A stretch of DNA of 64,000 bases from Candidatus Heimdallarchaeota archaeon (GCA_020353515.1 CP070695.1:3823908-3887907); one strand, 5' to 3'; positions 6,787-53,866 are shown, numbered from the stretch's first letter. Translations and numbers: made by a program. The notes: generated by a model not told the origin, from the sequence alone.

Positions 6787-6908
6787 TTGAAAATCTCTCT
6801 TTATAAGTAAACTTTGTAAACGATGCAAACGGGGAGTTATCAAGTCATCTCTTAAATCTCTGCATGGAAATAATTTCTTCAATAATTGGACTAGGAGACT
6901 TTGTAAGA

Positions 6909-16833: not shown

Positions 16834-17700
16834 CTAGAGGTAATTTTTGACTGCTTCAGGGATTTCCCAGGGCGTCTCGGTGACTTTAGCACCGACTGCC
16901 TCTAAAGCGTCAATTTTTCCTTGAGCAGTCCCGACATTTCCAGAGATGATGGCGCCAGCGTGACCCATACGTTTTCCTTCAGGTGCACTCTTACCTGCTA
17001 TGTAAGCGACAACAGGTTTGTCAACCTTTTGATCTTTGATATACTGTGCCACTTTCTCTTCGTCATCACCACCGATTTCCCCAATTAATACGATTACTCG
17101 TGTCCCAAGATCCTTAACATAATAATCAAAAGCTTCAGTTAATGTTTTTCCTCGAACTGGATCTCCACCAATTCCAATATATGCGGAAACTCCAACATCG
17201 GCATTACCAAGAGCTTTTGTGATTTCATATGACAAAGTACCACTTTTTGCGATAACAGCTACATCTCCAAAATGAGCCATATCACCAGGCATGATACCTA
17301 ATTTAATTTTATCTGGGATTAACATTCCTGGAGTATTCGGGCCAATTAGGTTTAATTTTCTTGTCTTCGCAATCTCCACAAGACGAACCATATCAAAAAC
17401 AGGGACTCCCTCAGTAATGATACATGTCATATTGACTCCTGCATCTAGACTTTCCATAACAGCGCCATAGGTGAAACGAGCTGGAACAAAAATGATGCTT
17501 GTATCCACTTCCTGTTCGTCGACTGCTTCTTGGACAGTATTGTACACAGGAACTCCAAGTACTTCTTGCCCACCCTTTTTAGGAGTTACTCCTGCAACAA
17601 CGTTGGTCCCATATTCAAGCATCAATTGGGAATGGAACCTTCCTTGATTACCAGTAATGCCTTGAACAACAACTTTCGAATCTTCACTAATGTACATCAT
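16834..17700 (-). CDS. sucD: Succinyl-CoA synthetase alpha subunit
   Basis: [41 protein letters not shown] (phospho-His). Confidence 0.95.
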
Positions 17701-17709
17701 ATCACCTTC

Positions 17710-18831
17710 TTATGTCATAACCTCTTTAAGCTTAGCAACGGCATCCATCATATCTTGATAGGCATTAACCCCAGCATTATTGAGTATGGCGATACCTTCA
17801 GCCTCTCGTGTTCCAGTTAATCGAATTACCATAGGTGGAGCATCTGGGAACTCTTCCATGGTCTGTAAGATAGCCTCTGCCACAACATCACACCGTGTAA
17901 TGCCACCATATATGTTAATTAAGACAGCTCTTGGATTCATCGTATAGATAAGTTTAAGGGCTTCATATACACGTTCCTTGCTGGCTCCTCCACCAACATC
18001 TAGGAAATTCATTCCTGCCAAACCATGTTGAGCTAGAACGTCAAGTAATGCCATCGTTAGCCCTGCTCCATTTGCTAAAATCCCAATTTCGCCGTCGAGT
18101 TCGACAAAAGAAAATCCCACTCTTTGGGCTGTTTTTTCTAACTCCGTAAGCTTATGTTTTCGCAATTCCACTATTAGCTCTTGACGAAACGCAGCGTTGT
18201 CATCTAGAGTCATTTTTCCATCAACAGCGACCACTCCTGAAGGAGTGAGTACCAAGGGATTGATTTCAACCAGCTGGGCTTCTCTCTCGATTGTAATTTG
18301 CCATAATTTCAGGAAAAGGTCTGTGGCGGAATCAAGAAATGCACCTGAAAAACCTAATCTTTCAGCAACACTTTTAGCTACTTCTTTGCCTAATCCTTTA
18401 GCTATAGATATATTTTCTTTGATTATTGCCTCTGGGCGAGTAGCAGCAACCTCCTCAATGTCAATTCCCCCTTCTGCACTCGCAATAAGGACAAAACGCC
18501 GCCCAGATGAATCTAGTGCAATGGAACAATAATATTCATGTTTAATATCAGCCAAGCCTTCTATAAGGATCGCTTCGACTCCATATTCACCAACTTTCCT
18601 GCTGAAAAACTCTTCACACATAGCAAGAGCTTCATCTCTTGTTTGAGCAATTTTGATGAGTCCCCTCTTCTTTCGGCTTCCAACAGCTATTTGACTTTTT
18701 ACTATGGCAGGAAAGGCAAATTGATCGATTTTTTCCTTAATATTCTCCCCTTTTGTGATTACAAGACGATCAGCAAGGGGTATATCAAACTCATTAAAAA
18801 TTTCTTTACTTTCATATTCGAGAAGACGAAT
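17710..18831 (-). CDS. sucC: Succinyl-CoA synthetase beta subunit (probable ATT start)
   Basis: RLLEYESKEIF, EGGIDIEE, EINPL, NGAGL, NFLDVGGG, GGITRCD; GGAGGT lies 7 nt upstream of ATT at 18831. Confidence 0.92.
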   Translation of the reverse strand: MRLLEYESKEIFNEFDIPLADRLVITKGENIKEKIDQFAFPAIVKSQIAVGSRKKRGLIKIAQTRDEALAMCEEFFSRKVGEYGVEAILIEGLADIKHEYYCSIALDSSGRRFVLIASAEGGIDIEEVAATRPEAIIKENISIAKGLGKEVAKSVAERLGFSGAFLDSATDLFLKLWQITIEREAQLVEINPLVLTPSGVVAVDGKMTLDDNAAFRQELIVELRKHKLTELEKTAQRVGFSFVELDGEIGILANGAGLTMALLDVLAQHGLAGMNFLDVGGGASKERVYEALKLIYTMNPRAVLINIYGGITRCDVVAEAILQTMEEFPDAPPMVIRLTGTREAEGIAILNNAGVNAYQDMMDAVAKLKEVMT

Positions 18832-18918
18832 TGTGTAAACCTCCAAATAAATTGTAATTTAAAAATAAAAGGGTTGATAGGGAATTTTTCGCACTCTAAT
18901 TTCCTATTTTGTGCTTAA

Positions 18919-19524
18919 TTAAAAGGTAATACCTAAAAATTCACCTATTTTACCTAATTTTCCTTGAGCTTTTAGAGCTACATCTTTAAACAGACTCTCA
19001 CCGTTAGAATCGATTCCTACGATCAAAGGTCCGAATTTATCTACTTCTAACACCCAAAGACATTCCGGAGTACCTAAATCTAACCAATGAACCTCTTTAA
19101 CACGTTTTATCCCTTTTGCAGCAACTACTGCGGCACCACCAACGAAGGCGGTATATATTGCTTTATATTCCTTCATAGCTTTCGCTGTTCTATCTCCCAT
19201 GCCACCCTTACCAATAACAACATTAACATTAAATGTTTTAATGAATTCATCTTCAAAAAGATCCATACGTGTTGAGGTTGTAGGTCCTGCGGCAACAATT
19301 TCCCATTCATCCCCTACTTGTCTAACTACTGGTCCACAATGATAAACAGCTAATCCCTCGAAATCAATAGGCATTTTTTCACCTTTTCCTGCAAGATGCA
19401 ATGCTCTCTCATGAGCTTCATCTCTAGCAGTGAAAATTGTTCCCGATACGTATATCACATCGCCTATCTTAACTTTTTGTACATCTTCTTTTGAAATTGG
19501 AGTTGTAAAATGAAATTCCGCCAT
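18919..19524 (-). CDS. Fe-S fumarate hydratase (class I), beta subunit
   Basis: TARDEAH, YHCGPV, GPTTSTRM, IGKGGM. Confidence 0.92.
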   Translation of the reverse strand: MAEFHFTTPISKEDVQKVKIGDVIYVSGTIFTARDEAHERALHLAGKGEKMPIDFEGLAVYHCGPVVRQVGDEWEIVAAGPTTSTRMDLFEDEFIKTFNVNVVIGKGGMGDRTAKAMKEYKAIYTAFVGGAAVVAAKGIKRVKEVHWLDLGTPECLWVLEVDKFGPLIVGIDSNGESLFKDVALKAQGKLGKIGEFLGITF

Positions 19525-19526
19525 AT

Positions 19527-20423
19527 TTATTCCTCCTTATGTGTGAGAAACTCAACTCGTTTGTCAGGATAAATACGAGCTGTTGCTCTTCTTGCAGCCC
19601 AGCACTGAATAGCTACTGCAGCAGGTAATGAGGCTGGATGACGATGAGCATATTCGATTTTTACGTCTAAAGCTGTAGAGAAATCTCCACCTAATCCCAT
19701 AGATCCAATGCCTGTCATATTTATTGCTTTTAGTAGATCCTCTTCAAGTTTAGCTATCTCTGGATCAGAATGTCTTTCTCCAAGTGGGCGTAGTAATTGT
19801 TTTTTCCCGAGTTTTAGTGCAATGTCTGCACCACCACCAATACCAACACCCACGACCACAGGTGGACAAGGTTGGCCCCCTGCATTCATAATGGTGTCAA
19901 TAACGAATTTTTTTACCCCATTAATACCTTGGCCTGGTTTAAGCATTCCCAAGGCACACATATTCTCTGATCCACCACCCTTGGGAAAAGCAGTAATTTC
20001 CAAGTAATCTGCTCCAGGAATGAAATCATAATTTATGAATGGAATATGATTTCCCGTATTATCTCCTGAATTACCGCCAACAATAGGATTAACAGCGTTT
20101 GGTCTTAAAGGAACCTCCTTGGTTGCTCGAGCTGAAGCTTTTCTAAGCATTCCTTCAATTCCAGCAACTTTGGGAAAATTCTCACCAATATTTACATAAT
20201 AGATATGGATCCCTGTATCTTGACACATTGGGGTAGATGTCTCATCTGCAATGGTAAAGTTATCCACAATTGTTTTTAACGCAGCTTTACTTGTTGGTTG
20301 TGTTTCCTGTTTATACATGGTTTTTAATCCTTCGGAAACATCATTAGGTAGCTGTGTCGCAGCAAACCTGAGTAATTTTACAGCTGTATCTTCAATTATT
20401 GTGTTATCAAACGTTTCTGCCAT
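19527..20423 (-). CDS. Fe-S fumarate hydratase (class I), alpha subunit
   Basis: PMCQDTG, PLRPNAV, KGGGSEN, PCPP, HPASLP, IQCWAAR; start moved to ATG 20423. Confidence 0.92.
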   Translation of the reverse strand: MAETFDNTIIEDTAVKLLRFAATQLPNDVSEGLKTMYKQETQPTSKAALKTIVDNFTIADETSTPMCQDTGIHIYYVNIGENFPKVAGIEGMLRKASARATKEVPLRPNAVNPIVGGNSGDNTGNHIPFINYDFIPGADYLEITAFPKGGGSENMCALGMLKPGQGINGVKKFVIDTIMNAGGQPCPPVVVGVGIGGGADIALKLGKKQLLRPLGERHSDPEIAKLEEDLLKAINMTGIGSMGLGGDFSTALDVKIEYAHRHPASLPAAVAIQCWAARRATARIYPDKRVEFLTHKEE

Positions 20424-20553
20424 ACTTATCACAATTCTCAAGTAATTAGTATATGAAAAACTGATAAAATGATTTTTTTTGTCATAATAAAAATTCTATC
20501 ACTTATAACTTATGAATACAATGTAGCCTTTAGAATCAACTAATTTTAATTTG

Positions 20554-20596
20554 AAATAAAAGGGAGAGTGGGATGATGGCAACCAATTTTGCCATC
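20554..20596 (-). terminator. Putative terminator after sdhB
   Basis: Perfect 8-bp stem GATGGCAA/TTGCCATC, then CCCTTTTATTT on the minus strand. Confidence 0.55.
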
Positions 20597-20615
20597 CTTG
20601 AAGCTAGGAACTAGG

Positions 20616-21347
20616 CTAACGTGACCAAAATTTAAGTGCCTGAATCGCTGCTTGCCGTTTCAAAGCCTGAATAGCCTCTGTCGGATTAAGCTCCTTTGGA
20701 CAAGCTTCCACACAATTAAAGGCGGTATGACAACGGAAAACACCATCTTCAGCAGAGACACGTTTAACACGATCTTTAGTGTTTTCATCTCTAGTATCCT
20801 TTGCAAAACGGAATGCTTTTAAAAGTGCTCCAGGGCCTAAATAATTCTTGTCTGTCCATACTGATACGCATGAACTATGGCAACAGCCGCATAGAATGCA
20901 CTTAGTCGCTTCTTCGATAATTTTGAAGTCTTCGGGACTTTGAATAAGCTCAGTTTCTGGATCTTTGCTATGATCGCGCATTAAGAAAGGATCGATAGCA
21001 AGCAGTTTCTCATAAAACGGATCCATATCAACTACCAAGTCTTTAATCACAGGGAAGAAGGGGATGGGTTCTAGTTTAATCTCATCTTTCTTAAGTTGAA
21101 GAACTAAGGTCTCGCATGCTAATTGATACTTTTTATTGACTAGAACGGCACAGGAGCCACACACACCAGCCCGACAGTTATATCTCATGGCTATCGAGCC
21201 ATCTTGTTTAGCAATTAGTTCTTGTATTGCGATTAAAACAGTTGTCCCTTTGTCACAGTCTAATTCAAAAGTATCCCAATAAGGTTCAATATCCTTTTTT
21301 GGATTGAAGCGTTTGATCTTGAAAATTATTTTTTTAGTTTCACTCAT
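20616..21347 (-). CDS. sdhB: Succinate dehydrogenase/fumarate reductase Fe-S subunit
   Basis: CRAGVCGSC [2Fe-2S], CILCGCC [4Fe-4S], CHTAFNCVEACP [3Fe-4S]; GAGGTGA before ATG 21347. Confidence 0.95.
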   Translation of the reverse strand: MSETKKIIFKIKRFNPKKDIEPYWDTFELDCDKGTTVLIAIQELIAKQDGSIAMRYNCRAGVCGSCAVLVNKKYQLACETLVLQLKKDEIKLEPIPFFPVIKDLVVDMDPFYEKLLAIDPFLMRDHSKDPETELIQSPEDFKIIEEATKCILCGCCHSSCVSVWTDKNYLGPGALLKAFRFAKDTRDENTKDRVKRVSAEDGVFRCHTAFNCVEACPKELNPTEAIQALKRQAAIQALKFWSR

Positions 21348-21357
21348 TGTTTTCACC

Positions 21358-23079
21358 TCAGTACTTTCGTTCCTCCGGTTGCCACTTCGTAATAATGACA
21401 TCTAGATAGCTCAGTTTGGCTTCACCATCCACATAATTTACCAACGTGTGCTTCAGGAAGTTATCATCGTCTCTTCCCATGTTATCTAGTCTCCAGTGGC
21501 TACCACGGCATTCCTTTCGCTCAAGAGCACCTAAACAAATCGCTTCGGAAAGTTCCAACATTCCCTCGAGAGCCAAGACCCACTCTAACTCCCTATTGTA
21601 CAATCTGTCCTTGGATTTAAGGTAAACACCTTCTTTGAATCGTTTCTTAAGTTCCCTGATCTTATTGAGCGCTTCCGCTAAAGGAGCTTCTTCTCGATAA
21701 ACAAACACCTTCAACTTCATTGTATCACGCATTTCTTGCATGATCTGGAATGGATCGTTCTTACCTTCACCACTGAACCAGAAATCATGTTTTTCTTGTT
21801 CCTTAACGAATTCTTCGAAGATTGCATACTTTGCATCAGGAGATGGAGACACTCCTTCTACAAATTTTGCTGCCTCTAAACCAGATACTTTCCCGAAAAC
21901 AGCACAACCTAATAATGAATTACCACCCAGACGATTTGCACCATGCACTGAAATGCATGCGCCTTCACCGCAGGCATAGAAACCTTCCACTTCTTTACTT
22001 GCACAGTTCCCATCAACATGAATACCTCCCATTGCGTAATGAAAACCTGGTTGAACTGGGATAGGATCTTTAATCATGTCCTGGCCACTGAACCGTAAAG
22101 CTAGCTCTCTGATTTGGGGAAGACGTTCTAGGATCTGTTCAGCTGGAAGATGTGTTAAGTCAAGATGAACATATCCATTCTCTTTTGTCCCATACCCTCT
22201 GCCTTCAAGTACTTCTTGGTAAATTGACCTCGATACAATATCTCTCGGAGCAAGCTCCATCTTTTCTGGAGCATATTTTTCCATGAAACGCTCACCTTTG
22301 TTATTTCGTAAGTAACCACCTTCTCCTCGTGCTGCTTCTGAAATTAGAACGTTATTCCCATATAAAGTGGTTGGGTGAAACTGAATGAACTCCATATCTT
22401 TCAAAGCAACGCCTCCCCAATATGCGACAGCCATACCAAAACCTGTACAGTTTAAGGCATTTGATGTAGCCCCATAGATCTGCCCAGCTCCCCCAATGGC
22501 AAATATTGTTGCATCACACTCCCACATCTCAAGTTCACCACTTTTGAAATTGTATACGATAAGTCCTTTCACTTTTTGGTCTCTTACTACGAGTCGAACA
22601 ACAAGACGATCTTCGTAAACAGGTACACCTAATTTTACTGATCTTTCCCAGGCAACATGGAGAATTGAATGCCCAGTACGATCTGCTGCAAAGCAGGTAC
22701 GTGGATATCCTGCACCACCAAAAGGCCTTTGACCAATCCTACCATCTTCAAATCTTGAAAAAGGGCAGCCCCAGTGTTCTAACTCATAAATAGTTTCCTT
22801 GGCTAGTTCAATCATCTTGATTACTGCTGGTTGGTCAGCTAAATAATCAGAACCTTTTACAGTGTCAAAAGCATGCCTTTCAACCGAATCATCTTTAGAC
22901 TCAGGATGATTTCCGAGGGGAGCATTAATTCCACCTTGAGCTGCAACAGAGTGACTTCTTACAGGCTGACAAATTGAAATGACAGCTACATCTGCCCCAT
23001 TTTCTCTAGCGGCTACTGCTGCACGCATACCAGCTAAGCCAGATCCTACAACTAAGATACTATGTCTCTTTATTTGCAT
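21358..23079 (-). CDS. sdhA: Succinate dehydrogenase/fumarate reductase flavoprotein
   Basis: [16 protein letters not shown] (covalent FAD His), [30 protein letters not shown]; GGAGGT before ATG 23079. Confidence 0.95.
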
Positions 23080-23083
23080 GACT

Positions 23084-23596
23084 CTAACCTCCAAGGGTTC
23101 CTCCTATTTCGACAATTCCAGGAAGAATAGCTATTAGGAATAAGCCTAAAGCCCATGTAATAACTCCAAGAACTAGAAATATCCAAAATATCATCTTTTG
23201 ATGACGGATTCCTATACCGAGGTCAAATAAAACCACTCTTACTCCATTAGCACCATGATATATTCCTAAAGCCATTACTCCAGCATCAATGAAGAATCCA
23301 ATAGACAACATGTGATTTAACAATTCAACTCCAGTGTCAAAGAGATTTTGATTCATTGCATGAACTACTGTATTATATAATTCTCCCGCTTGAAATCCTA
23401 GGAACGGATCGAGTAACATCAAACCGATGATTGACATATGAATAAAAACGTAGATTAGAAGGCATAATCCAGTTATCCTCTGGAAAAGCCATGCATACAT
23501 ACCCATTCCACGAGAAAATGGATTGAACCAAGAGAGGAAATTAGATGCTTTACTGCTTGTTTCAATTTGTGAATCTTCAACTGTGACTTTTGTCAT
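23084..23596 (-). CDS. sdhC: Succinate dehydrogenase cytochrome b subunit
   Basis: WLFQRITG...FIH; [13 protein letters not shown]; 3 TM. Confidence 0.85.
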
Positions 23597-23606
23597 TTAC
23601 TTCACC

Positions 23607-24032
23607 TTATGCAACCATCACCGTATAATTTAGGAAGAACGCATAAACTACCAATAAAAAGCCAATAAGTAGGAGTACTATTGCGAGTAACCTTTTACTC
23701 ACTCTTCCAGGGGCTAAATCAAGTGTGACCGTTCTAAATCCGTTTAACATGTGAAAAACAACTGTTAAAACGAATAATACCGATATCCAGAAGTAAAAAG
23801 GAAAATTAATCATCTTCCATCGAACAGCTTGGAATGATGCAATACCATATGTTTCGACTATATCTAGTGGAAGATGAGCACTTAAATAGTGGTTTACCAG
23901 CATATGAAATAGGATCAGGAAAAATAACATTACTCCTGTTATTCGCTGAAGAACCCACCAAAGAGCACTCTTCTTACTATGTTTTGGCAAAAATTTTGCA
24001 AATTTGCTTTCAGAAAAAAGTTCAGTTCCCAT
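23607..24032 (-). CDS. sdhD: Succinate dehydrogenase membrane anchor subunit
   Basis: WVLQRITG...LFH; FHMLNGFR; 3 TM. Confidence 0.85.
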   Translation of the reverse strand: MGTELFSESKFAKFLPKHSKKSALWWVLQRITGVMLFFLILFHMLVNHYLSAHLPLDIVETYGIASFQAVRWKMINFPFYFWISVLFVLTVVFHMLNGFRTVTLDLAPGRVSKRLLAIVLLLIGFLLVVYAFFLNYTVMVA

Positions 24033-24310
24033 ATTTTGCTCACATCACACATAAAACTATTAATTTCTACGATTATCGTAAGCTAATAACTCTGTGGAAT
24101 ATATGGACATGTCGAGAATAGTATCTTAAATTATTTGTTGGAAAAAAGTGGCTATTTTTCAAACACAAAGTAAAATTCATAATAATTCAGGCTGAGTATT
24201 CCTGAGGGAATAATAACTAAAAACAAAAAAATGGATTGAAATAGAGAAATAGTAACTCTATTAACCTAACTGGGACTACTAATCTTAATTCGTAGAATTC
24301 AGGTGATTTT

Positions 24311-24640
24311 ATGTTTATTCGCATTATTACAGTACCAGCACGAGAAATCGCTTTTGAAAATCTAGAATCAATCCGAAAAACTCTAGTTGAAGAGAATTAT
24401 CGAGCATTAAAGGAACAAAAGGGATGGAAAAAGACAGTAGTTATGTATAATCAAGAAAAGAAACAATTCAAAGTAATCACTTACTGGTCTTCCAAGGAAC
24501 AAGCTGGAGTCCTTGATGAAAGGGATCCTGAGTTGTCTAGCTCAGCTTATATACAAGTTGGAAAACATGCAGAATATTTTGAAAATGAAAACCTCACTGT
24601 TGAACATTATGATCATTTAGAAACTATAGAAAACACCTAA
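24311..24640 (+). CDS. Small dimeric alpha-beta barrel (ABM-like) protein
   Basis: MFIRII...QKGW...VITYWSSKE pattern; GGTGA RBS. Confidence 0.55.
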   Translation: MFIRIITVPAREIAFENLESIRKTLVEENYRALKEQKGWKKTVVMYNQEKKQFKVITYWSSKEQAGVLDERDPELSSSAYIQVGKHAEYFENENLTVEHYDHLETIENT

Positions 24641-24701
24641 TCCAAAACAATTGAAATTTCACTACTAGGAAAAAAAAGAAATTGTGAGTAAGAATCTCAT
24701 T

Positions 24702-26051
24702 TTACCGATTCTTCACATCAATATAATTTCCTGCATCTGGGAGTATGTAGACAAGGGGATCTTGATTCTTTTCTTCTCTGTACTTCTGAATCCATGCAAG
24801 AAGGCTTTCCTGAACATCACCTGTTCGTGGAACATATTTTATCTGGAAAATCTCTTCGAGCTCGTCTTTATCCATCTCAGTAATCATGTGACAAGTACAT
24901 CGTTGTAAGATGCGTATTAAATCGACTACTTTCTGATTACCAATCTTAAAATTATCAATACTACATTTAGTTTTAATCACATGATCCATCGCTTCATCAA
25001 GTTCCATACCTTTAATTTCTTCCATCGTATCTTTGTAATTCTGAGACCCATGACCTAGGGGGCAGTGAGCAAGTAACAACACGTCCCCACCTTCTTTTAC
25101 TGCATTCCAACCAGCATGAAATCCTTTTCCACCTTGATACAAATTGATACTCAATGCTCCAGTAGATACAATGACAAGGTCAGCACCTTCATCCACCTCT
25201 ACAATCCTTAGTGGCTTTAAAGTTTCTAGAACTAATTCATGTAAAGAGTTGATATCTCCTGCATTCAGAATAACTATGTCGTCTCCTTCCATCACCGCAT
25301 CAATATCAAAGACAGGTACCATCTTTTTAGTTTTTTTTGCCATCTCTATCATATCTTGGATGACAGGATTCCCTTCGGTATTTCCGAGTCTACATGCAGG
25401 TTTAAACCCGTGATCCTTATCAAACATTTGAGGATGATTCCTGGCAATGGTTTCTTTTCCTGCACATCCTGGAAAGAAAGATTTTACGGTTCCTGCTACT
25501 CCAGCGAAATAGTGGTATTCACTATCAGAGACTGCAATGACTAAACCAGATTCCAACACATCAATGTCTACTTCAATAGGTGTACCCAGCGATGATGTTC
25601 CAATATTCTTACAGTTTTCCGCTTGCTTGTGGATTAAGACATATTCTTTCCACGCATTATAAATTTCAGAACCAAGGATTTTATTTTCAAGTAAATCATC
25701 ACTTGGTGGACTATGGGATCCACTTGCAATCATAATACGAATGTCATCTTTATCTACTCCATAATCGAACAGTTTTTCTAAAAGCATTGGAAGTAAAATC
25801 TTCGTGTGCTTATTTGGCCTTGTTGCATCATCCACAAGAATCATTATTTTCGGTCTTTGCCGATTTTTCACCATTTCCTCTAAAGGGGGTGAATCAACTG
25901 GATTTTTGATGATTTCATCAAAACGAGCTTGGAGATCTGTGAAAGTTCGTTTTGCTTTCTCGGGCTCCAGAACTCGTACATTCAGATCAGCTGGGATAAA
26001 ATGGGAAATCATTTCATCCCCGTATGCTAACGCTATATCCTTGTAAGTCAT
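24702..26051 (-). CDS. larA: Nickel-pincer-dependent alpha-hydroxyacid racemase (LarA family)
   Basis: VDDATRP, IASGSH, HYFAG, K...PG, NH, NLYQ; likely ATG start at 26051 (MTYKDIALAYG). Confidence 0.85.
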   Translation of the reverse strand: MTYKDIALAYGDEMISHFIPADLNVRVLEPEKAKRTFTDLQARFDEIIKNPVDSPPLEEMVKNRQRPKIMILVDDATRPNKHTKILLPMLLEKLFDYGVDKDDIRIMIASGSHSPPSDDLLENKILGSEIYNAWKEYVLIHKQAENCKNIGTSSLGTPIEVDIDVLESGLVIAVSDSEYHYFAGVAGTVKSFFPGCAGKETIARNHPQMFDKDHGFKPACRLGNTEGNPVIQDMIEMAKKTKKMVPVFDIDAVMEGDDIVILNAGDINSLHELVLETLKPLRIVEVDEGADLVIVSTGALSINLYQGGKGFHAGWNAVKEGGDVLLLAHCPLGHGSQNYKDTMEEIKGMELDEAMDHVIKTKCSIDNFKIGNQKVVDLIRILQRCTCHMITEMDKDELEEIFQIKYVPRTGDVQESLLAWIQKYREEKNQDPLVYILPDAGNYIDVKNR

Positions 26052-26187
26052 AAGTATCATCCCTACTAAATCCGTAATTTCCATTATTTTATAATAATTT
26101 TTCCTCCAATGCTTTATGAGAAGCAAGAATAAGCAGGTTTCACTTAATATTCTATTTCTAACCACAATAAAACGTAAATGTAATTAG

Positions 26188-26286
26188 AATGTAGATTACA
26201 TTTTTTATAATAAAATTCTTATTGACTTGTCAATTTTTTATAACTAGACTCTAGAATTCCCTCGTAAGTAAATAAGAGGGAAATTC
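26188..26286. promoter_or_regulatory. Cluster of inverted repeats in the divergent larA/aclB promoter region
   Basis: AATGTA-GAT-TACATT (26188-26202), ATTGAC-TT-GTCAAT (26221-26234), GAATTCCCTC...GAGGGAAATTC (26254-26286). Confidence 0.5.
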
Positions 26287-26353
26287 AAAATGTACGTTAC
26301 TTCCTGCCTTTTTCTATATTATATTTCTTAAGTAGATTTAGAGAGGAAAGAAT

Positions 26354-27643
26354 ATGGCACAAAAGTCAATATATGAATTTTCAGCAAAGAAATTACTTAT
26401 GTTAGAGTTACCAAAATATTTCCCTGAATATAATTATCATGGGAAACTCGCGGTAATTACGCCTGATACTGATTGGAATAAATTAGTCACCGCCAATCCT
26501 TGGCTTAAAACTGATAAGCTTGTAGCAAAGCCTGATCAACTTTTTGGAAAGCGTGGTAAAGCAAAATTATTGCTATTAGACGCGGATTTTGATGGACTGA
26601 AATCTTTCTGTTCTGATAGGTTAAATAAAGGAGTGGAAATTGATGGTATTAAAGGTACTCTCAATAGATTTCTAGTTGAACCATTCATTCCACACGAGAA
26701 AGAATTTTATGTCTCAATAACTTCTGATATGGAAAATGATATTATTCACTTTTCTTTCGAAGGAGGTATTTTCGTTGAGGAAAACTGGGATAAAGTAATA
26801 CATATTCCTGTCCCAATTGGAACTGATATTTCAACTTTTGATCTAGCAAGTAAGCTTCCAGATTTAGGTAACTTGAGAAATGAACTTATACAATTTATCA
26901 AAGGAGTTTATCAAGTCTATGTCGACCAAGATTTCGCTTTTCTAGAGATAAATCCTTTCGCCATCACTGAAGACAAAAAGATAGTTCCTTTAGATTTAAA
27001 AGCCAAACTTGATGATACTGCTAGTTTTTTACATATAGATACTTGGGGAAATCCAGATAATCCTATTGAGTTTCCAAGGGCTTTTGGACAAAAATTATCT
27101 AAAGAGGAACAATTTATTTCTGACTTGGATGAAAAAACTGGAGCTTCCTTAAAATTTACCATCTTGAACAGAGACGCCCGAGTATGGACGATGGTAGCAG
27201 GGGGCGGTGGATCTGTCGTGTACACAGATACTATCGCTGATATGGGGTTTTCTAAAGAATTAGGCAATTATGGAGAATATTCAGGAAACCCTAATCGAGA
27301 GCATACAGAACTTTACGCCCAGACGATCATTGATGTTATCACGGAAAAACCTGATCCTCAAGGACGCCCCAAGATTTTACTTATAGGTGGTGGAATTGCG
27401 AATTTCACTGATGTGAAAGCAACCTTTATGGGTATTGTAGCAGCCTTACGTAAATCTGCAGAAAAGTTGCGTAATGCTAATGTTAAAATCTACGTCCGGC
27501 GAGGTGGGCCAAATGAAAAAGAAGGATTGAAATTGATGAAGGATGTTGGTCAAGAAATAGGGGTTCCTATTGAAGTCTTTGATAGATATACACATATGAC
27601 AAAGATTGTTCCATTATCCTTGGAGCTAGTTAAAGGAGATTAG
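26354..27643 (+). CDS. aclB: ATP-citrate lyase, ATP-grasp/citrate-binding subunit
   Basis: KPDQLFGKRGK, WTMVAGGG, NYGEYSG, IGGGIANFT, RRGGPN. Confidence 0.95.
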   Translation: MAQKSIYEFSAKKLLMLELPKYFPEYNYHGKLAVITPDTDWNKLVTANPWLKTDKLVAKPDQLFGKRGKAKLLLLDADFDGLKSFCSDRLNKGVEIDGIKGTLNRFLVEPFIPHEKEFYVSITSDMENDIIHFSFEGGIFVEENWDKVIHIPVPIGTDISTFDLASKLPDLGNLRNELIQFIKGVYQVYVDQDFAFLEINPFAITEDKKIVPLDLKAKLDDTASFLHIDTWGNPDNPIEFPRAFGQKLSKEEQFISDLDEKTGASLKFTILNRDARVWTMVAGGGGSVVYTDTIADMGFSKELGNYGEYSGNPNREHTELYAQTIIDVITEKPDPQGRPKILLIGGGIANFTDVKATFMGIVAALRKSAEKLRNANVKIYVRRGGPNEKEGLKLMKDVGQEIGVPIEVFDRYTHMTKIVPLSLELVKGD

Positions 27644-27646
27644 AAA

Positions 27647-29485
27647 ATGACAGTTGAACTATTTAATCGGAATACTAAGGCAATTATTTACGGTTTTCAA
27701 CGTAATGCCATTCAACGAATGCTTGATTTTGACTTTGTATGTAAAAGAGAAACTCCTTCGGTCGCTGCAGTAATCAGACCGAGTCAAGCAGGGGCAATCG
27801 GTTACCATAAAGTGTTTTGGGGTGGGAAAGAAATTGTTATACCAATTTATCGCAAACTTGCACTCGCAATCAAAAAACATCCTGATGCCGACGTTTTAAT
27901 CAACTTTTCATCATTTCGCTCTGCGTATCCAACAACAATGGAAGCGTTGAATGCTGATACCATCAAGACTGTAGCTGTTATTGCAGAGGGAATCCCTGAA
28001 CGCCAAAGCCGTGAAATGCATAAGTTAGCCCAGAGTAAAGGAAAAGTAATAATTGGTCCTGCGACTGTGGGCGGAATACAAGCAGGGGCATTCAAAATTG
28101 GTAATACAGCCGGAACAATAGAAAATGTTGTTCTTTCTAAACTCTATCGTCCAGGTAGTGTTGGATTCGTGTCAAAAAGCGGAGGTATGAGTAATGAAAT
28201 GAATTTTGCAATCTCTCAGAACTCCGATGGTGTCTATGAAGGAATAGCTATCGGTGGTGACCGCTATGCTGGATCGACCCTATTGGATCATCTGCTTCGG
28301 TACGAGGCTAATCCTAAGATAAAGATGATGGTTTGTCTTGGTGAAGTTGGTGGTACAGGAGAAATAGATATTGTCAATGCTGTTAAAGATGGTCGTATCA
28401 CTAAACCCCTAGTGATGTGGTGTATTGGTACAGCAGCTAGTATCCTCCCATCTGGATTACAATTCGGACATGCAGGTGCAATGGCTGGTAGTGAGATGGA
28501 AACAGCTAGCGCAAAGAATAAAGCTCTCGCGGAAGTCGGAGTAATCGTTCCTGATTCCTATGACGATTTCGGTGACAAGATCAAGGAAACCTTTGAAAAA
28601 CTGAAAGCTGAAGGAAAGATTGACCCCATCGATGAATTTGAACCTCCAAAATTACCTATGGACTATGCCCAAGCTTCTAGACAAGGTATTGTAAGAAGAC
28701 CAACCGATGTTGTATGTACAATCAGTGATGAGCGAGGAGACGTTCCAATGTTTGCAGGTGTTGGTCTTGATAGAATTATTAGGGAAAATAAATCGATTGG
28801 GTATACAATAGGTTTACTCTGGTTCAAAAGGGAGTTACCACAATATGCCCAAGACTACATCGAAATGGTTGTAAAATTAACTGCAGATCATGGACCAGCT
28901 GTTAGTGGTGCCCATAATGCAATAATAACTGCTCGCGCTGGTCGAGATCTTATGTCTTCGCTTTCGAGTGGAATCTTAACAATAGGTCCACGATTTGGTG
29001 GTGCCATCTCTGATGCAGCGAAATACATCAAGGAAGCTGTTGATAAAGGCTCGAAACCAGTAGATTTCGTTGACTACATGAAAAACGTTGTCGGAATAAA
29101 TATTCCTGGTATCGGCCATAGGATAAAATCTGTCCAGAATCCTGATGTTCGTGTAACACTCCTAAAGGAATTCGTTTTCAAACACTTTGAGACACATCCT
29201 CATCTTGATTTTTCCTTAGAAGTAGAAAAAATTACTACTGCAAAGCGAAATAACCTTATCCTCAATGTTGACGGATGTATTGGGATCTGTTTCTTGGATC
29301 TCCTCTTAAATCTTGGTTTAACTGATGATGAAATACAAGATGTTATCGATAGCGAGTTACTCAACGGATTATTCGTTCTTGGCCGATCTATTGGAATGAT
29401 GGGGCATATCTTTGATCAGAAAAGACAGAGAGCCGCTCTTTATAGACAACCGTGGGATGAGATCTTGTTTAGTACAGAAAACTAG
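27647..29485 (+). CDS. aclA: ATP-citrate lyase, CoA-binding/citryl-CoA lyase subunit
   Basis: IGPATVGG, QFGHAGA (phospho-His), ADHGPAVSGAHN, PGIGHRIKS, LILNVDG. Confidence 0.95.
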   Translation: MTVELFNRNTKAIIYGFQRNAIQRMLDFDFVCKRETPSVAAVIRPSQAGAIGYHKVFWGGKEIVIPIYRKLALAIKKHPDADVLINFSSFRSAYPTTMEALNADTIKTVAVIAEGIPERQSREMHKLAQSKGKVIIGPATVGGIQAGAFKIGNTAGTIENVVLSKLYRPGSVGFVSKSGGMSNEMNFAISQNSDGVYEGIAIGGDRYAGSTLLDHLLRYEANPKIKMMVCLGEVGGTGEIDIVNAVKDGRITKPLVMWCIGTAASILPSGLQFGHAGAMAGSEMETASAKNKALAEVGVIVPDSYDDFGDKIKETFEKLKAEGKIDPIDEFEPPKLPMDYAQASRQGIVRRPTDVVCTISDERGDVPMFAGVGLDRIIRENKSIGYTIGLLWFKRELPQYAQDYIEMVVKLTADHGPAVSGAHNAIITARAGRDLMSSLSSGILTIGPRFGGAISDAAKYIKEAVDKGSKPVDFVDYMKNVVGINIPGIGHRIKSVQNPDVRVTLLKEFVFKHFETHPHLDFSLEVEKITTAKRNNLILNVDGCIGICFLDLLLNLGLTDDEIQDVIDSELLNGLFVLGRSIGMMGHIFDQKRQRAALYRQPWDEILFSTEN

Positions 29486-29486
29486 G

Positions 29487-29510
29487 AGAAAAGTCCCCCC
29501 TTTTCTTTTT
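29487..29510 (+). terminator. Putative terminator after aclA
   Basis: AGAAAAG/CTTTTCT stem running into a T tract. Confidence 0.4.
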
Positions 29511-29571
29511 ACTAAGGTTTAAAGATAAATCAATTAAATTAAAATTATTAAAATCGTAAAGGTGATAAATA

Positions 29572-30771
29572 ATGTCTGAAGAATATGTGAAAAAAGCAAC
29601 AGAGCATTTTGAAAAATTGGTAAGGGAACAGTTAGAACGCGTAGAAAGGATGAAAAAAGAGCCTGATTGGACAGATTACAGCACATTAAAACCGATCATC
29701 ATTGGTGCTTGTGGTGGAGATGGTATCGGGCCTAAAATCACTGAGCACGCTGTGGCTGTTTTAAACTTCCTCTTAAAGGATGAAATCAAGTCAGGAAAAA
29801 TCGAAATCCGAAATATTGAAGGTTTAACCATCGAGAACAGAGCAAAAGTGATGAAAGCGATTCCTGATGATGTTTTGGAAGATTTAAAGAAATGCCACGT
29901 CATCCTCAAAGGTCCAACCACCACTCCGTGGAAAGGAAATAAGTATGGTTGGCCAAATATTGAGAGTGCTAATGTGGCAATGCGTCGAGAACTAGACCTC
30001 TTTGCCAACGTTCGTCCTGTTCGTGTTCCCGAAAAGAACATCGATTGGATGTTTTATCGTGAGAATACAGAAGGAGCATACGTTCTTGGTTCAAAAGGTG
30101 TTGATGTCTCCGATGACCTGGCCATAGACTTCAAAGTGATTACTAATCAGGGTTCTGACCGTATTATCAGAGCAGCGTTTGATTATGCAAAGAAAAACAA
30201 TATCAATAAAGTTACTGTAGTCACAAAGGCCAATGTTGTCAAGAAAACAGATGGTAAATTCCTTGCAATTGCTGAAGAAGTTGCTAAAGACTATCCAGAG
30301 GTTGAATGGGACGATTGGTATATTGACATCATGACCGCAAAACTCATCGATCCTGCTCGACAGAGCTCGTTCCGAGTGATTACTGCTCCAAACCTGTATG
30401 GTGACATTGTTACCGACGAAGCAGCTCAGATTCAAGGGGGTTTAGGAACTGCAGGGGCCGCTAATATTGGAAAACGATATTCGATGTTTGAAGCTGTCCA
30501 CGGTTCTGCTCTTCGAATGGTTGAAGATGGCAGGGTGGACTACGCAGACCCTACAAGTATCATTAAGGCAGCTTCGATGTTATTGAACCATATTGGATTC
30601 ACAGAGAAGGCAGACAGACTTGACAAAGCTATTGAGATCTGTTCTCAGTATGAAAAGAAGTTTGTCATAACAGGCAGAGATACAGGAGCAACTGGAGAAG
30701 AATATGCCAAATATATAATGGAAACGCTCCAAGATCCCAATATTGACCAGAAATGGCAAAGTTATCAGTGA
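29572..30771 (+). CDS. icd: Isocitrate dehydrogenase (isocitrate/isopropylmalate dehydrogenase family)
   Basis: GDGIG, LKGPTTTP, SANVAMRR, RENTEG, TKANV, NLYGDIVTD, FEAVHGSA; lies between acl and aconitase. Confidence 0.8.
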   Translation: MSEEYVKKATEHFEKLVREQLERVERMKKEPDWTDYSTLKPIIIGACGGDGIGPKITEHAVAVLNFLLKDEIKSGKIEIRNIEGLTIENRAKVMKAIPDDVLEDLKKCHVILKGPTTTPWKGNKYGWPNIESANVAMRRELDLFANVRPVRVPEKNIDWMFYRENTEGAYVLGSKGVDVSDDLAIDFKVITNQGSDRIIRAAFDYAKKNNINKVTVVTKANVVKKTDGKFLAIAEEVAKDYPEVEWDDWYIDIMTAKLIDPARQSSFRVITAPNLYGDIVTDEAAQIQGGLGTAGAANIGKRYSMFEAVHGSALRMVEDGRVDYADPTSIIKAASMLLNHIGFTEKADRLDKAIEICSQYEKKFVITGRDTGATGEEYAKYIMETLQDPNIDQKWQSYQ

Positions 30772-30855
30772 AATGCTTAATTTTCCATTTCTTTCCTTTT
30801 TTCTTTGTTGTCACATCAATATTTTTTTTTAAATAAAGAGGGAGATTGGAAGGAA

Positions 30856-32775
30856 TTATATATAACTTAATTTTCCACCGGCAAGGAGTATTTTGCGATC
30901 ACGCTCTGAAAGATCATATGAAGTTTCTATGTCAAATCTTTGGGTAACATCTCGGATGATAATGGTTTGATTTTCTTCTAAGGCTTTACGCACTCCTTTA
31001 ATCTCTAAAATATCATTTTCTTTAATTTTGTCATAATCCGCTGTGTTTGCGAAAGATAAAGGAAGAATTCCGAAGTTAATTAAGTTGTCCCGATGAATAC
31101 GGGCAAAGGACTTCGTAAGGACGGTCTTTATTCCTAGATACATTGGAGCAAGTGCTGCATGTTCCCTGCTTGAACCTTGACCGTAATTCTCACCGCCAAT
31201 TATGATTCCCCCGCCTTCCTCTTTACTTTCAAGAGCTCGCTCGGGGAATGTTGGATCGACCTGCTCGAACACATGCTTACTAATTTCAGGAAGATTAGAC
31301 CTTAGAGGTAGAATCTTTGCTCCTGCAGGCATGATATGATCCGTAGTGACGTTATCTTCTGTTTTAATGAGCACTTTGAATTGAAAATCGTCAGGAAGCG
31401 CTTGGAATTCTGGTAATGGGGCAATATTGGGGCCTCGGATTATCTCGACCTCTTCAGGTTTGTCAGATGGTTTAAGAATCATTGAGTCATCGATTTCAAT
31501 TGATTTGGGAATTTCAATTTTTGGAAAGTCTCCTAATTTTCGGGGATCTGTGAACTCTCCAAAAACAGCGGCAGCCACAGCAACTTCTGGACTGACCAAA
31601 TATGCATTTGCACTTTTTGTTCCACTTCTACCATAAAAATTCCTGTTGAAAGTACGGGCAATTGTTGCATCTGTCTTAGGAGCAAAACCCATGCCAATGC
31701 ATGGACCACAAGCAGTCTCAAGAATCCGAGCTCCTGCGGTAATCATATCAGCCAAACTACCATCTTTTGATAATTGCATTAACACTTGACGTGATCCAGG
31801 AGAAATACCTAAAACTGTGTCTGGATGGATTTTCCGTCCTTTTAGAAGAGCTGCAGCAGTTAACATGTCTTTTAATGAACTATTAGTGCAAGATCCGATT
31901 GCTACTTGGTCTACCTTCATTCCTTCAACTTCAGATAGAGGAATAACGTCACCTGGAGAATGGGGTTTAGCAACAAGGGGTTCCAGTTCAGAAAGATTGA
32001 TCTCTATTATCTCATCAAAATCATCATCGCTTCCAGCAGGAATTTCCATCCATTGATCTTCCCTTTCTTGCCATTTAAGAAACTCACGCGTGATTTCATC
32101 AGAGGGGAAAATTGATGTTGTTGCTCCAGTTTCAGCCCCCATGTTTGTAATAGTAGCTCGCTCGGGAACTGATAGTGTTTTCACTCCTGAACCAAAGTAT
32201 TCTAGGATTTTACCAACACCACCTTTTACTGATATCCTCCTGAGAACTTCTAAGATTACATCTTTGGCAGTAACATAATCTGGTAAAGATCCAGTTAGTT
32301 TGACTCCTACCATCTTCGGTGTTTTGAGATAAAATGGACCCGCACCCATTGCTACAGCAACATCAAGACCACCAGCACCGATTGCAATTGCACCCATTCC
32401 ACCAGCTGTTGGAGTATGCGAATCAGAACCAATCATTGTCTTTCCTGGTCTCGCAAAACGCTCGAGAAAAACTTGATGGCAGATACCATTACCAGGTCTA
32501 GAAAACATAATGCCATATTTTGCTGCGACTGATTGTAGATACCGATGGTCATCAGGGTTTTTAAAATCTGTTTGTAACGTATTATGATCTACAATTGACA
32601 CAGATAATTCTGTCTTGACCTTATCAAGACCCATTGCTTCAAATTGAAGGTATGCCATCGTTCCAGTGGCATCTTGAGTCAGAGTATGATCAATACGAAT
32701 ACCAATTTCTTCTCCGATCTCAAATTTTCCCTCAACAAGATGATCTTCTAATATTTTCTTTGCTATGGATACCAT
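30856..32775 (-). CDS. Aconitate hydratase (short, single-chain ~640 aa type)
   Basis: TQDATG, DHN, GSDSHT, GSCTN, ACGPCIG, NRNF, TTDHI, GSSREHAA. Confidence 0.9.
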   Translation of the reverse strand: MVSIAKKILEDHLVEGKFEIGEEIGIRIDHTLTQDATGTMAYLQFEAMGLDKVKTELSVSIVDHNTLQTDFKNPDDHRYLQSVAAKYGIMFSRPGNGICHQVFLERFARPGKTMIGSDSHTPTAGGMGAIAIGAGGLDVAVAMGAGPFYLKTPKMVGVKLTGSLPDYVTAKDVILEVLRRISVKGGVGKILEYFGSGVKTLSVPERATITNMGAETGATTSIFPSDEITREFLKWQEREDQWMEIPAGSDDDFDEIIEINLSELEPLVAKPHSPGDVIPLSEVEGMKVDQVAIGSCTNSSLKDMLTAAALLKGRKIHPDTVLGISPGSRQVLMQLSKDGSLADMITAGARILETACGPCIGMGFAPKTDATIARTFNRNFYGRSGTKSANAYLVSPEVAVAAAVFGEFTDPRKLGDFPKIEIPKSIEIDDSMILKPSDKPEEVEIIRGPNIAPLPEFQALPDDFQFKVLIKTEDNVTTDHIMPAGAKILPLRSNLPEISKHVFEQVDPTFPERALESKEEGGGIIIGGENYGQGSSREHAALAPMYLGIKTVLTKSFARIHRDNLINFGILPLSFANTADYDKIKENDILEIKGVRKALEENQTIIIRDVTQRFDIETSYDLSERDRKILLAGGKLSYI

Positions 32776-32927: not shown

Positions 32928-36047
<3,120 letters not shown>

Positions 36048-39181: not shown

Positions 39182-39199
39182 TGTTATCACTTAATATCA

Positions 39200-40069
39200 T
39201 TATTTCTTCTTTTGAGCCACATCTCGAAGATGTTGAACCTTCTGACTAAAACCCTCCCTTGGCGCATCAACAAACTCCCCGCAGATTATCTTCCCCTGTT
39301 TGAAGTCAAATGTAGCTTCATGAGGTGGCCAATCAGTTTTTATCCTCACTTGATTTTTTATCCAGTCTAACATCTGGACAGCGTCACCGAGCTTGTTCTT
39401 GCGACCGTATTGGGTGAAACATGGAGCAAGCACTTCGATGAAGCTAAATCCTGGATTATCAAATGATTTTAAAATGCTGTTTCTTAATCTGATAGTGTCA
39501 TATCCAGGCCAACGGGCAACATAACTTGCCCCTGAAGCTGCTGCTAATGAAACTAAATTGAATGGAGGTTCAATATTCCCATAAGGAGTGGTTGTTGTGA
39601 AGTCACCTATCTGAGTGGTCGGAGCACATTGACCTCCAGTCATCCCATAGACATTGTTATTTATACACAGAACGGTTATTTCTACATTTCTTCTACAGGC
39701 ATGGATGAAATGATTCCCACCAATGGCAAAAAGATCTCCGTCTCCTGAAAGAACAACTACTTCAAGATTAGGATTTGCCAGTTTCAACCCTGTAGCAAAG
39801 GGAATAGCTCTCCCATGCGTTGTGTGAAAAGCAGGAGAATTAAAACATCCACTAGATCGGCCAGTGCAACCAATACCTGAAACCACTGCATAATCTTTAG
39901 ATGTGAGACCTCTTTCTGCAAAACAGCTAGTTATAGATGTTATTGCTGATCCGATCAGACAACCAGGACAAAAGATAAATCGATGTAAGTTTAACCTTTC
40001 ATGTAAGGGATGATCCTCAGGGATCTCGTCAGAACTTTTTGGAGCTGGAATTTTATCTGTTGTTGTCAT
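39200..40069 (-). CDS. korB: 2-oxoacid:ferredoxin oxidoreductase beta (TPP-binding) subunit
   Basis: FCPGC, SGIGC, HTTHGR, GDGD, YGMTGGQ. Confidence 0.9.
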   Translation of the reverse strand: MTTTDKIPAPKSSDEIPEDHPLHERLNLHRFIFCPGCLIGSAITSITSCFAERGLTSKDYAVVSGIGCTGRSSGCFNSPAFHTTHGRAIPFATGLKLANPNLEVVVLSGDGDLFAIGGNHFIHACRRNVEITVLCINNNVYGMTGGQCAPTTQIGDFTTTTPYGNIEPPFNLVSLAAASGASYVARWPGYDTIRLRNSILKSFDNPGFSFIEVLAPCFTQYGRKNKLGDAVQMLDWIKNQVRIKTDWPPHEATFDFKQGKIICGEFVDAPREGFSQKVQHLRDVAQKKK

Positions 40070-40071
40070 AT

Positions 40072-41226: not shown

Positions 41227-41507
41227 GAACTCTCCTCCTGTAGTAATTGTATCTCAGTTACAAATATTGAGACAGAGGGGCAGATCCGCTCACACTGTTG
41301 ACACCCTACACATTCATCTGGCTTAACAGCAATCGCAGGGTGTAACATTCTTGAGTTGTATGCCTCCATATCGATCTCCAATACGTCTGTTGGACAGAAC
41401 TCCACACATAATTCACATCCATCACACTGTTCAGGTAGTATCGTCACGACATACTCCTTATCAGTAGTTGGAGGAGGTAATATGGGCTTCCGTTGGCTTC
41501 TTAACAT
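41223..41507 (-). CDS. korD: 2-oxoacid:ferredoxin oxidoreductase delta subunit (2x[4Fe-4S] ferredoxin)
   Basis: CDGCELCVEFCP and CVGCQQCERICP. Confidence 0.9.
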   Translation of the reverse strand: MLRSQRKPILPPPTTDKEYVVTILPEQCDGCELCVEFCPTDVLEIDMEAYNSRMLHPAIAVKPDECVGCQQCERICPSVSIFVTEIQLLQEESS

Positions 41508-51948: not shown

Positions 51949-51952
51949 AAAT

Positions 51953-53836: not shown

Positions 53837-53866
53837 AAAAGTCACCAATTTTCAATAATTCGCTGT

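Follow-up and report, generated by a model that had tools for sequence, protein, structure and literature searches.

Gene organization of the cluster

The subject of this study is a cluster of tricarboxylic acid (TCA) cycle genes that includes those for ATP-citrate lyase (ACL), in the genome of Candidatus Heimdallarchaeota archaeon (G000; a single record of 4.94 Mb, 96% complete and with 7.4% contamination). We analyzed a 64 kb stretch of this genome (G000:C1:3823908-3887907; hereafter the window), with coordinates counted from its first letter and gene calls checked by Pfam and NCBIfam scans. An earlier note on this DNA had described a TCA gene cluster at 16834-32775, and every gene that it named there was confirmed. 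In order, the cluster comprises sucDC, fumBA, sdhBADC, a LarA-like racemase gene that the note did not list, aclBA, icd and the gene for a 639-aa aconitase. Its attribution of the DNA to an Asgard archaeon was likewise borne out, the organism belonging to the Hodarchaeales by the source names of near-identical proteins.

The ACL beta subunit encoded by aclB (26354-27643, plus strand) combines an ATP-grasp domain with an ACL-specific citrate-binding domain (Pfam Citrate_bind, 264 bits; Citrate_synth_N, 230 bits against a cut-off of 83). Only 3 bp separate this gene from aclA (27647-29485, plus strand; Pfam CoA_binding, Ligase_CoA and Citrate_synt), whose alpha-subunit product joins a CoA-binding/CoA-ligase part and a phosphohistidine loop to a citrate-synthase-like domain at the C terminus, the citryl-CoA lyase domain. 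In the AclA alignments, both the GHAGA sequence of the phosphohistidine loop and the His/His/Asp lyase motifs are conserved. Aligned over its full length, AclA scored 790 bits against the alpha-type chain of ACL from Methanothrix (Methanosaeta) concilii (6hxi_B) and 763 bits against human ACLY (6hxh), compared with 430 bits against Chlorobium AclA, in keeping with the homology to ACLY that had been claimed for this two-subunit enzyme. PDB entries 6hxi and 6hxh are the M. concilii two-subunit ACL and human ACLY of Verschueren et al. 2019. As in M. concilii, the enzyme is split between two genes, whereas animal ACLY is fused. Judged from its sequence, this is an intact ACL that belongs to the archaeal/eukaryote-like (Methanothrix/human) type and is predicted to cleave citrate.

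Downstream of aclA, after a gap of 86 bp, lies icd (29572-30771, plus strand; Pfam Iso_dh, 222 bits), encoding an isocitrate-dehydrogenase-type beta-decarboxylating dehydrogenase. The solved structures most similar to its product are small NAD-type isocitrate dehydrogenases (6m3s, 190 bits), and all NCBIfam equivalog models scored below cut-off. Convergent with icd is the gene for the 639-aa aconitate hydratase (30856-32775, minus strand; NCBIfam PRK07229, 974 bits against a cut-off of 612).

The minus strand from 16834 to 24032 carries sucD, sucC, fumB, fumA, sdhB, sdhA and two genes for Sdh_cyt membrane anchors. The succinyl-CoA ligase alpha subunit is encoded by sucD (16834-17700; Pfam CoA_binding, 98.8 bits, and Ligase_CoA, 71.8 bits), which is 89% identical to its ortholog within the syntenic block of congener G008, and the beta subunit by sucC (17710-18846; Pfam ATP-grasp_2, 169 bits, and Ligase_CoA, 69 bits), whose TTG start is uncertain. 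The fumAB pair encodes the subunits of a class I Fe-S fumarate hydratase (fumB, 18919-19524, Pfam Fumerase_C, 163 bits; fumA, 19527-20441, Pfam Fumerase, 314 bits). Together, sdhB (20616-21401; Fer2_3 and Fer4), sdhA (21358-23094; TIGR01812 sdhA_frdA_Gneg, 703.5 bits against a cut-off of 567) and the anchors sdhC/D (23084-23596 and 23607-24032; Pfam) make up a predicted membrane-bound succinate:quinone oxidoreductase or quinol:fumarate reductase (20616-24032), between which directions sequence does not decide.

Conservation and phylogeny of the ACL module

Synteny of the whole block, sucDC-fumBA-sdhBADC-larA-aclBA-icd-acn, extends to congeners G008 and G011, at 52-96% protein identity, and in part to others. 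In a Harpocratesius (Lokiarchaeia) genome, acn-aclB-aclA-icd forms one co-linear unit. We surveyed 78 loci from named genomes that possess an AclA relative and found that aclA adjoins aclB in 73, icd in 38 and a small aconitase gene in 30, the last including the MK-D1 and L. ossiferum loci. Instances of the acn-aclBA(-icd) core come from Loki, Thor and Hodarchaeales genomes, and the acn-aclBA order is found also in relatives from Anaerolineae, Elusimicrobia and Thermoplasmatota; among these 78 loci, linkage of larA and sdh to acl is confined to the Hodarchaeales group. Given the synteny of the block in G008 and G011 and the recurrence of the acn-aclBA-icd core in Lokiarchaeia, the clustering is not due to chance. 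The conserved functional core is acn-aclBA-icd, and the larger cluster is a lineage-specific joining of this core to sdhCDAB-fumAB-sucCD.

Within the genus, 19 of the 22 genomes encode ACL, and G003, where what is probably a fragment of AclA lies at the edge of a contig, would be the twentieth. We further scored 301 Asgard genomes, each at least 80% complete, for ACL and for citrate synthase (CS; E<=1e-60). ACL was found in 94 and CS in 85, with 28 genomes possessing both and 66 possessing ACL without CS; occurrence of the two was independent across this sample (odds ratio 1.1, p 0.68), a descriptive figure that ignores kinship. Orthologous acn-aclBA modules also occur in Promethearchaeum syntrophicum MK-D1 and Lokiarchaeum ossiferum, which are cultured, non-autotrophic syntrophs that ferment peptides and amino acids. 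Asgard ACL is, then, a routine component of an acn-aclBA-icd module that is often the only link from acetyl-CoA and oxaloacetate to 2-oxoglutarate. Because the module is present in cultured non-autotrophs, ACL should not be counted towards CO2 fixation in metabolic reconstructions of the archaeon from which eukaryotes arose.

An ACL phylogeny, one of the checks proposed in the earlier note, was built quickly from 64 AclA sequences that included no eukaryotes (FastTree, LG+gamma). All 47 Asgard-labelled sequences fell into a single clade (support 0.95), within which the Hod/Heimdall-labelled group that contains the window's AclA (support 0.88) was sister to the Thor sequences (0.96). This tree fits inheritance of AclA inside the Asgard archaea. 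The relevance to the origin of ACLY that had been suggested for this locus is limited, since in published trees eukaryotic ACLA/B and ACLY group with DPANN and Thermoplasmatota-E3 sequences, not with Asgard ones (PMC11976288; bioRxiv 10.1101/2022.10.25.513756).

Several AclA relatives departed from the usual arrangement. Homologs of 1020-1040 aa were considered as ACLY-type fusions and rejected; they are tandem AclA-AclA' duplications and hence uninformative on the origin of ACLY. These tandem fusions are the metagenomic proteins P0035, P0043, P0045 and P0048, in which copy 1 keeps the GHAGA loop and has altered lyase motifs, and copy 2 lacks the GHAGA loop and keeps the lyase motifs; in sequence, the fusion looks like a subfunctionalised duplicate of the alpha subunit. 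Several Thermoplasmatota loci show a comparable identity to AclA (54-57%). In addition, a contig (L071; DATKTW010000007.1) assigned to an actinobacterial metagenome-assembled genome labelled Nanopelagicaceae bacterium bears a Loki-type aclBA-icd set with an AclA that is 75% identical and nests within the Lokiarchaeia clade of the tree. The actinobacterial label is probably a binning error.

Citrate synthases and other citrate enzymes

The absence of citrate synthase claimed in the earlier note holds for the window, where Citrate_synt is matched only by the AclA lyase domain, and fails genome-wide. The genome yielded four Citrate_synt matches: a CS-PTAC fusion, prpC, a 713-aa SucD-like/citryl-CoA-lyase fusion and AclA itself. 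CS-PTAC is a 614-aa protein in which a type II citrate synthase is fused to a PduL-type phosphotransacylase. Its gene (L024:9435-11279, minus strand, where L024 is G000:C1:3990000-4009000) is found 112 kb downstream of the window, at the head of a microcompartment operon that also encodes two BMC-H, one BMC-T and two BMC-P proteins, an aldehyde dehydrogenase, a Nuo51/RnfC-like flavoprotein, RpiB and a DERA fusion. Such an operon, CS-PTAC fusions included, has been described in Hodarchaeales (bioRxiv 10.1101/2025.11.08.687404). The prpC gene, flanked by prpB and prpD, belongs to a methylcitrate operon. Neither of these two synthases is a stand-alone enzyme of the cycle.

Genus-wide, true CS genes are of the microcompartment or prpC type only, and ACL occurs without CS in congeners G011 (96% complete), G017 (93%), G006 (91%), G021 (88%) and G010 (87%). 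Within this genus, ACL is the core citrate gene, and the citrate synthases are accessory and belong to other pathways. One of the two synthases is confined to a microcompartment operon, and ACL is the conserved citrate enzyme.

The 713-aa fusion belongs to a second citrate-cleavage-like system (L025, G000:C1:4052000-4069000). There, a gene for a 428-aa SucC-like protein without the ACL citrate-binding domain (L025:10214-11500, minus strand) pairs with that of the SucD/citryl-CoA-lyase fusion (L025:8076-10217, minus strand), with which a CitF (citrate CoA-transferase) homolog (L025:6523-8067, plus strand) is convergent. The fusion is kept in at least eight congeners as frames of 716-721 aa.

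Redox and carbon metabolism of the genome

Searches of the genome found neither heme-copper oxidase (COX1) nor cytochrome bd, and formate dehydrogenase was the only molybdopterin enzyme, with no nitrate reductase found. By these COX1, bd and molybdopterin searches, no quinol oxidase other than the Sdh/Frd complex was found. The E2 component of 2-oxoacid dehydrogenase complexes (2-oxoacid_dh) had no match in the genome, and a 2-oxoglutarate dehydrogenase complex is hence absent; E2 is present in two of the three congeners searched (G001 and G002). The earlier note had contrasted its reading with an oxidative cycle comprising an aerobic chain and a dedicated citrate synthase, a scenario that does not apply to a genome without oxidases.

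The search for phosphoenolpyruvate (PEP) and pyruvate carboxylases that the note had called for was carried out, and PEPcase, PEPcase_2, PYC_OADA and PEPCK_GTP had no matches in this 96% complete genome. Two PEPCK_ATP matches of about 33 bits were rejected as PEP carboxykinase (PEPCK), the one tested giving a partial match of 45 bits against a cut-off of 369. No carbon monoxide dehydrogenase/acetyl-CoA synthase (CODH/ACS) was found in the genome. The accompanying search for malate dehydrogenase (MDH) found no enzyme of the Ldh_1 type in the genome and one candidate, an Ldh_2-family dehydrogenase (399 bits) encoded 3.3 Mb away. Two malic enzymes, PEP synthase and at least three NiFe hydrogenases are also encoded.

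Across the 22 genomes of the genus, cytochrome bd occurs in 13 and COX1 in nine, so the present genome looks like that of a strict anaerobe in a genus whose other members tolerate oxygen. A comparison of three genomes with three had hinted that ACL and cytochrome bd are anti-correlated, but the pattern vanished once all 22 were scored. Cultured Hodarchaeales are obligately anaerobic, peptide-dependent syntrophs that are inhibited by H2 and formate (bioRxiv 10.1101/2025.02.26.640444). The supplements of that preprint contain no TCA or ACL expression data, and neither Imachi 2020 nor Eme 2023 nor the oxygen-plasticity preprint discusses ACL in its main text.

Beyond the cluster, on the minus strand of the window, lies korD-korA-korB-hdrA2(mvhD) (36791-41507), an operon for a Kor-like 2-oxoacid:ferredoxin oxidoreductase (OFOR) that ends in an HdrA2-MvhD flavoprotein. 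The KorA-like subunit exceeds the cut-off of a general 2-oxoacid:acceptor model (PRK08659, 475 bits against 411). The Kor-specific models remain under theirs (370 against 579 bits and 242 against 364 bits), as do the delta subunit (54.7 against 93 bits) and HdrA2 (1074 against 1100 bits). The fusion of HdrA2 to MvhD at the end of the operon suggests that 2-oxoacid oxidation is coupled to a flavin-based electron-bifurcating module. The operon has no gamma subunit gene, and HdrA-like genes are found beside acn-aclBA in Thor loci too.

Functional interpretation

From the gene identities, synteny, distribution and enzyme absences observed here, we infer flux directions and a physiological role for the cluster. 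Our preferred interpretation, to which we give a probability of about 0.5, is that the cluster encodes a branched or reversible heterotrophic citric-acid network, based on ferredoxin and menaquinone and without need for a dedicated citrate synthase. Most likely, it serves anaerobic amino-acid breakdown, not CO2 fixation. The acn-aclBA-icd module would interconvert 2-oxoglutarate plus CO2, isocitrate, citrate, and acetyl-CoA plus oxaloacetate, with an ATP-coupled ACL step; the ACL reaction is near equilibrium. The sdhCDAB-fumAB-sucCD module would interconvert malate, fumarate, succinate and succinyl-CoA, and the ferredoxin-dependent Kor-like oxidoreductase encoded nearby would bridge succinyl-CoA to 2-oxoglutarate.

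Such a network may operate in branched or reversed form during fermentative, syntrophic use of peptides, because O2 and nitrate reductases, 2-oxoacid dehydrogenase complexes and oxaloacetate-forming carboxylases are all missing from the genome. Glutamate-derived 2-oxoglutarate would then meet two fates. It could be oxidised through Kor and SucCD to succinate with a gain of ATP, or be reductively carboxylated through isocitrate to citrate, which ACL would split into oxaloacetate and acetyl-CoA, the latter serving ATP formation via acetate as well as biosynthesis. The Sdh complex would act mainly as a menaquinol:fumarate reductase and thereby as an electron sink. The oxidoreductive steps that set direction are all ferredoxin- or menaquinone-linked and reversible. 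Furthermore, with no acceptor for electrons from succinate and no anaplerotic carboxylase, neither a closed oxidative cycle nor an autotrophic reductive one is well supported here. We infer that, for each ATP, the ACL route would release half as many reducing equivalents as the oxidative one, to the benefit of a syntroph constrained by H2.

The earlier note had proposed a reductive or reversible TCA cycle, or a supply of acetyl-CoA from citrate; an autotrophic reductive cycle is unlikely in the absence of PEP carboxylase, pyruvate carboxylase, a real PEPCK and CODH/ACS from the genome. The note was right that the three marker families of the reductive TCA (rTCA) cycle are present and that their direction is not readable from sequence.

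Several observations weigh against the preferred interpretation. Direction has been argued from missing genes in a genome that is 96% complete and carries 7.4% contamination. Most congeners pair the same cluster with cytochrome bd, heme-copper oxidase or both; it is therefore not restricted to strict anaerobes, and in those congeners it may operate in the oxidative direction. Equivalog models for the Kor-like OFOR and the icd family fall below cut-off, leaving their substrate specificities as predictions only, and malate dehydrogenase is represented by a sole Ldh_2-family candidate 3.3 Mb distant. Sulfur compounds or metals, for which no search was made, could serve as acceptors and allow succinate oxidation. 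Finally, the Sdh anchors are of the succinate:quinone reductase type (Sdh_cyt), unlike those of E. coli Frd.

The main rival, possible though rather unlikely, is that ACL works in the opposite direction and makes citrate with conservation of ATP (acetyl-CoA + oxaloacetate + ADP + Pi -> citrate + ATP), which would feed 2-oxoglutarate and glutamate synthesis or an oxidative cycle. The near-equilibrium position of the reaction would allow it, and in the many ACL-positive Asgard genomes without CS, ACL would be the sole route from acetyl-CoA to citrate. The co-orientation of aclBA with icd is also what would be expected of a citrate-to-2-oxoglutarate route, and most congeners possess oxidases. There is a precedent in Desulfobacter postgatei, whose oxidative cycle uses ACL as its citrate synthase and in which sulfate respiration takes the electrons. 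Shared with Desulfobacter would be an anaerobic habit, replacement of citrate synthase by ACL and a predicted ferredoxin-dependent oxidation of 2-oxoglutarate; unlike Desulfobacter, however, the present genome was not found to encode a comparable electron acceptor. The genome has no O2 or nitrate reductase to take up the electrons of succinate oxidation, and no carboxylase is available to refill oxaloacetate under a net biosynthetic drain. Moreover, cultured relatives that live on peptides obtain glutamate directly.

A different explanation involves the microcompartment: CS-PTAC would condense acetyl-CoA and oxaloacetate inside the shell, freeing CoA, and cytosolic ACL would regenerate both from the exported citrate. 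If true, this citrate shuttle would give a lineage close to the eukaryotic stem a prokaryotic counterpart of the citrate/ACLY shuttle of mitochondria. The microcompartment operon that CS-PTAC heads is complete and lies 112 kb from the window, and ACL is the only evident return from citrate to oxaloacetate in a genome with neither a carboxylase nor an acceptor for succinate oxidation. The two congeners that possess the compartment and lack ACL (G002 and G004) both have oxidases, an observation in favour of the shuttle. Nevertheless, we consider it improbable: ACL shows no co-occurrence signal with the microcompartment marker PTAC (ACL is found in seven of nine PTAC-positive and 12 of 13 PTAC-negative genomes of the genus), ACL is widespread in Loki and Thor genomes (the microcompartment comparison covering the genus only), and the two loci are unlinked.

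An autotrophic reductive TCA cycle (the Arnon-Buchanan cycle), with H2 or formate supplying the electrons for CO2 fixation, was suggested first in Lokiarchaeia, where Bulzu et al. (bioRxiv 10.1101/385732) drew this inference. Such a cycle could draw on the ACL, Kor-like ferredoxin-dependent OFOR and Sdh/Frd complex as well as on PEP synthase, NiFe hydrogenases and formate dehydrogenase, all of which are present, but is highly improbable here, since the genome has no PEP or pyruvate carboxylase or real PEPCK for anaplerosis, the same ACL module occurs in cultured obligate heterotrophic syntrophs, and cultured Hodarchaeales require peptides, with both H2 and formate inhibiting them.

The three marker enzyme families are shared with the rTCA cycles of Chlorobium, Campylobacterota and Nitrospirota; the present genome differs in its AclA (430 bits to that of Chlorobium), in having no anaplerotic carboxylase and in its setting, the cultured relatives being heterotrophic and syntrophic. 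The published reconstruction of Lokiarchaeia (bioRxiv 10.1101/385732) likewise contains ACL, isocitrate dehydrogenase and 2-oxoglutarate:ferredoxin oxidoreductase, its sole type of MDH being COG2055/Ldh_2, and the orthologous Lokiarchaeia acn-aclBA-icd module is 67-77% identical to that in the window. Unlike in Lokiarchaeia, the module is joined here to membrane-anchored SdhCDAB, fumAB, sucCD and a LarA-like gene in a 16-kb block; sdhCD have been reported missing from Loki genomes (bioRxiv 10.1101/385732). As the present genome also lacks the Wood-Ljungdahl pathway and the carboxylases, we have not adopted the inference of autotrophy made for Lokiarchaeia.

ACL has been reported across Asgard archaea (PMC11976288; bioRxiv 10.1101/2022.10.25.513756), and the ACL-centred layout is already published for them (Bulzu 2018; Santana-Molina 2025). 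What our findings add is modest: the joining of the Hodarchaeales module to membrane-anchored SdhCDAB and a LarA homolog, the assignment of the citrate synthases of the genus to other pathways, the oxidase-free gene content of this genome, and the weakening of ACL as a marker of autotrophy by the module's occurrence in non-autotrophs in culture.

Neighboring genes

The neighbors that the earlier note had listed proved largely as described: two OFORs, an AcnA and a borderline MenA are present, and its 'FNR' is a thioredoxin-reductase-like flavoprotein (47654-48637). Besides the Kor-like operon, the window encodes a two-subunit 2-oxoacid:acceptor oxidoreductase consisting of a gamma-alpha fusion and a beta subunit (50932-53848, minus strand; TIGR03710 OAFO_sf, 649 bits against a cut-off of 483), followed by the AcnA-type aconitase of 897 aa (54409-57102, minus strand; Pfam Aconitase, 514 bits, and Aconitase_C, 138 bits). 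The MenA-like 1,4-dihydroxy-2-naphthoate prenyltransferase of menaquinone synthesis (6864-7868, plus strand; Pfam UbiA, 107 bits) scores 102.5 bits with the TIGR00751 menA model, whose cut-off is 102.15. Adjoining the 639-aa aconitase gene is one for a GH2 beta-galactosidase of 1036 aa (32928-36038, minus strand), which is syntenic in G011 and has no evident link to the TCA cycle.

Between sdh and acl, and divergent from aclB, sits the gene for a homolog of the LarA family of nickel-pincer 2-hydroxyacid racemases (24702-26165, minus strand; Pfam Lar_N, 145 bits). Its closest solved relative is the malate racemase Mar2 (6d6z, 166 bits), with which both catalytic His residues, the cofactor Lys and the Ni-ligand His all align; against the NCBIfam malate racemase model it scores 259 bits, below the cut-off of 500. 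The gene adjoins acl in nine Hodarchaeales loci, and LarC is encoded in the genome. A bypass of MDH by LarA and a D-2-hydroxyacid dehydrogenase was considered and set aside, given that an Ldh_2-family MDH candidate exists.

Enzymes of 2-hydroxyacids are abundant in the region. In addition to the LarA homolog, they comprise a 988-aa FAD-oxidase/CCG-domain fusion (10081-13047, plus strand) that resembles YdiJ, a D-2-hydroxyglutarate dehydrogenase, at 377 bits, below cut-off, and a glyoxylate-reductase-like D-2-hydroxyacid dehydrogenase (563-1543, minus strand).

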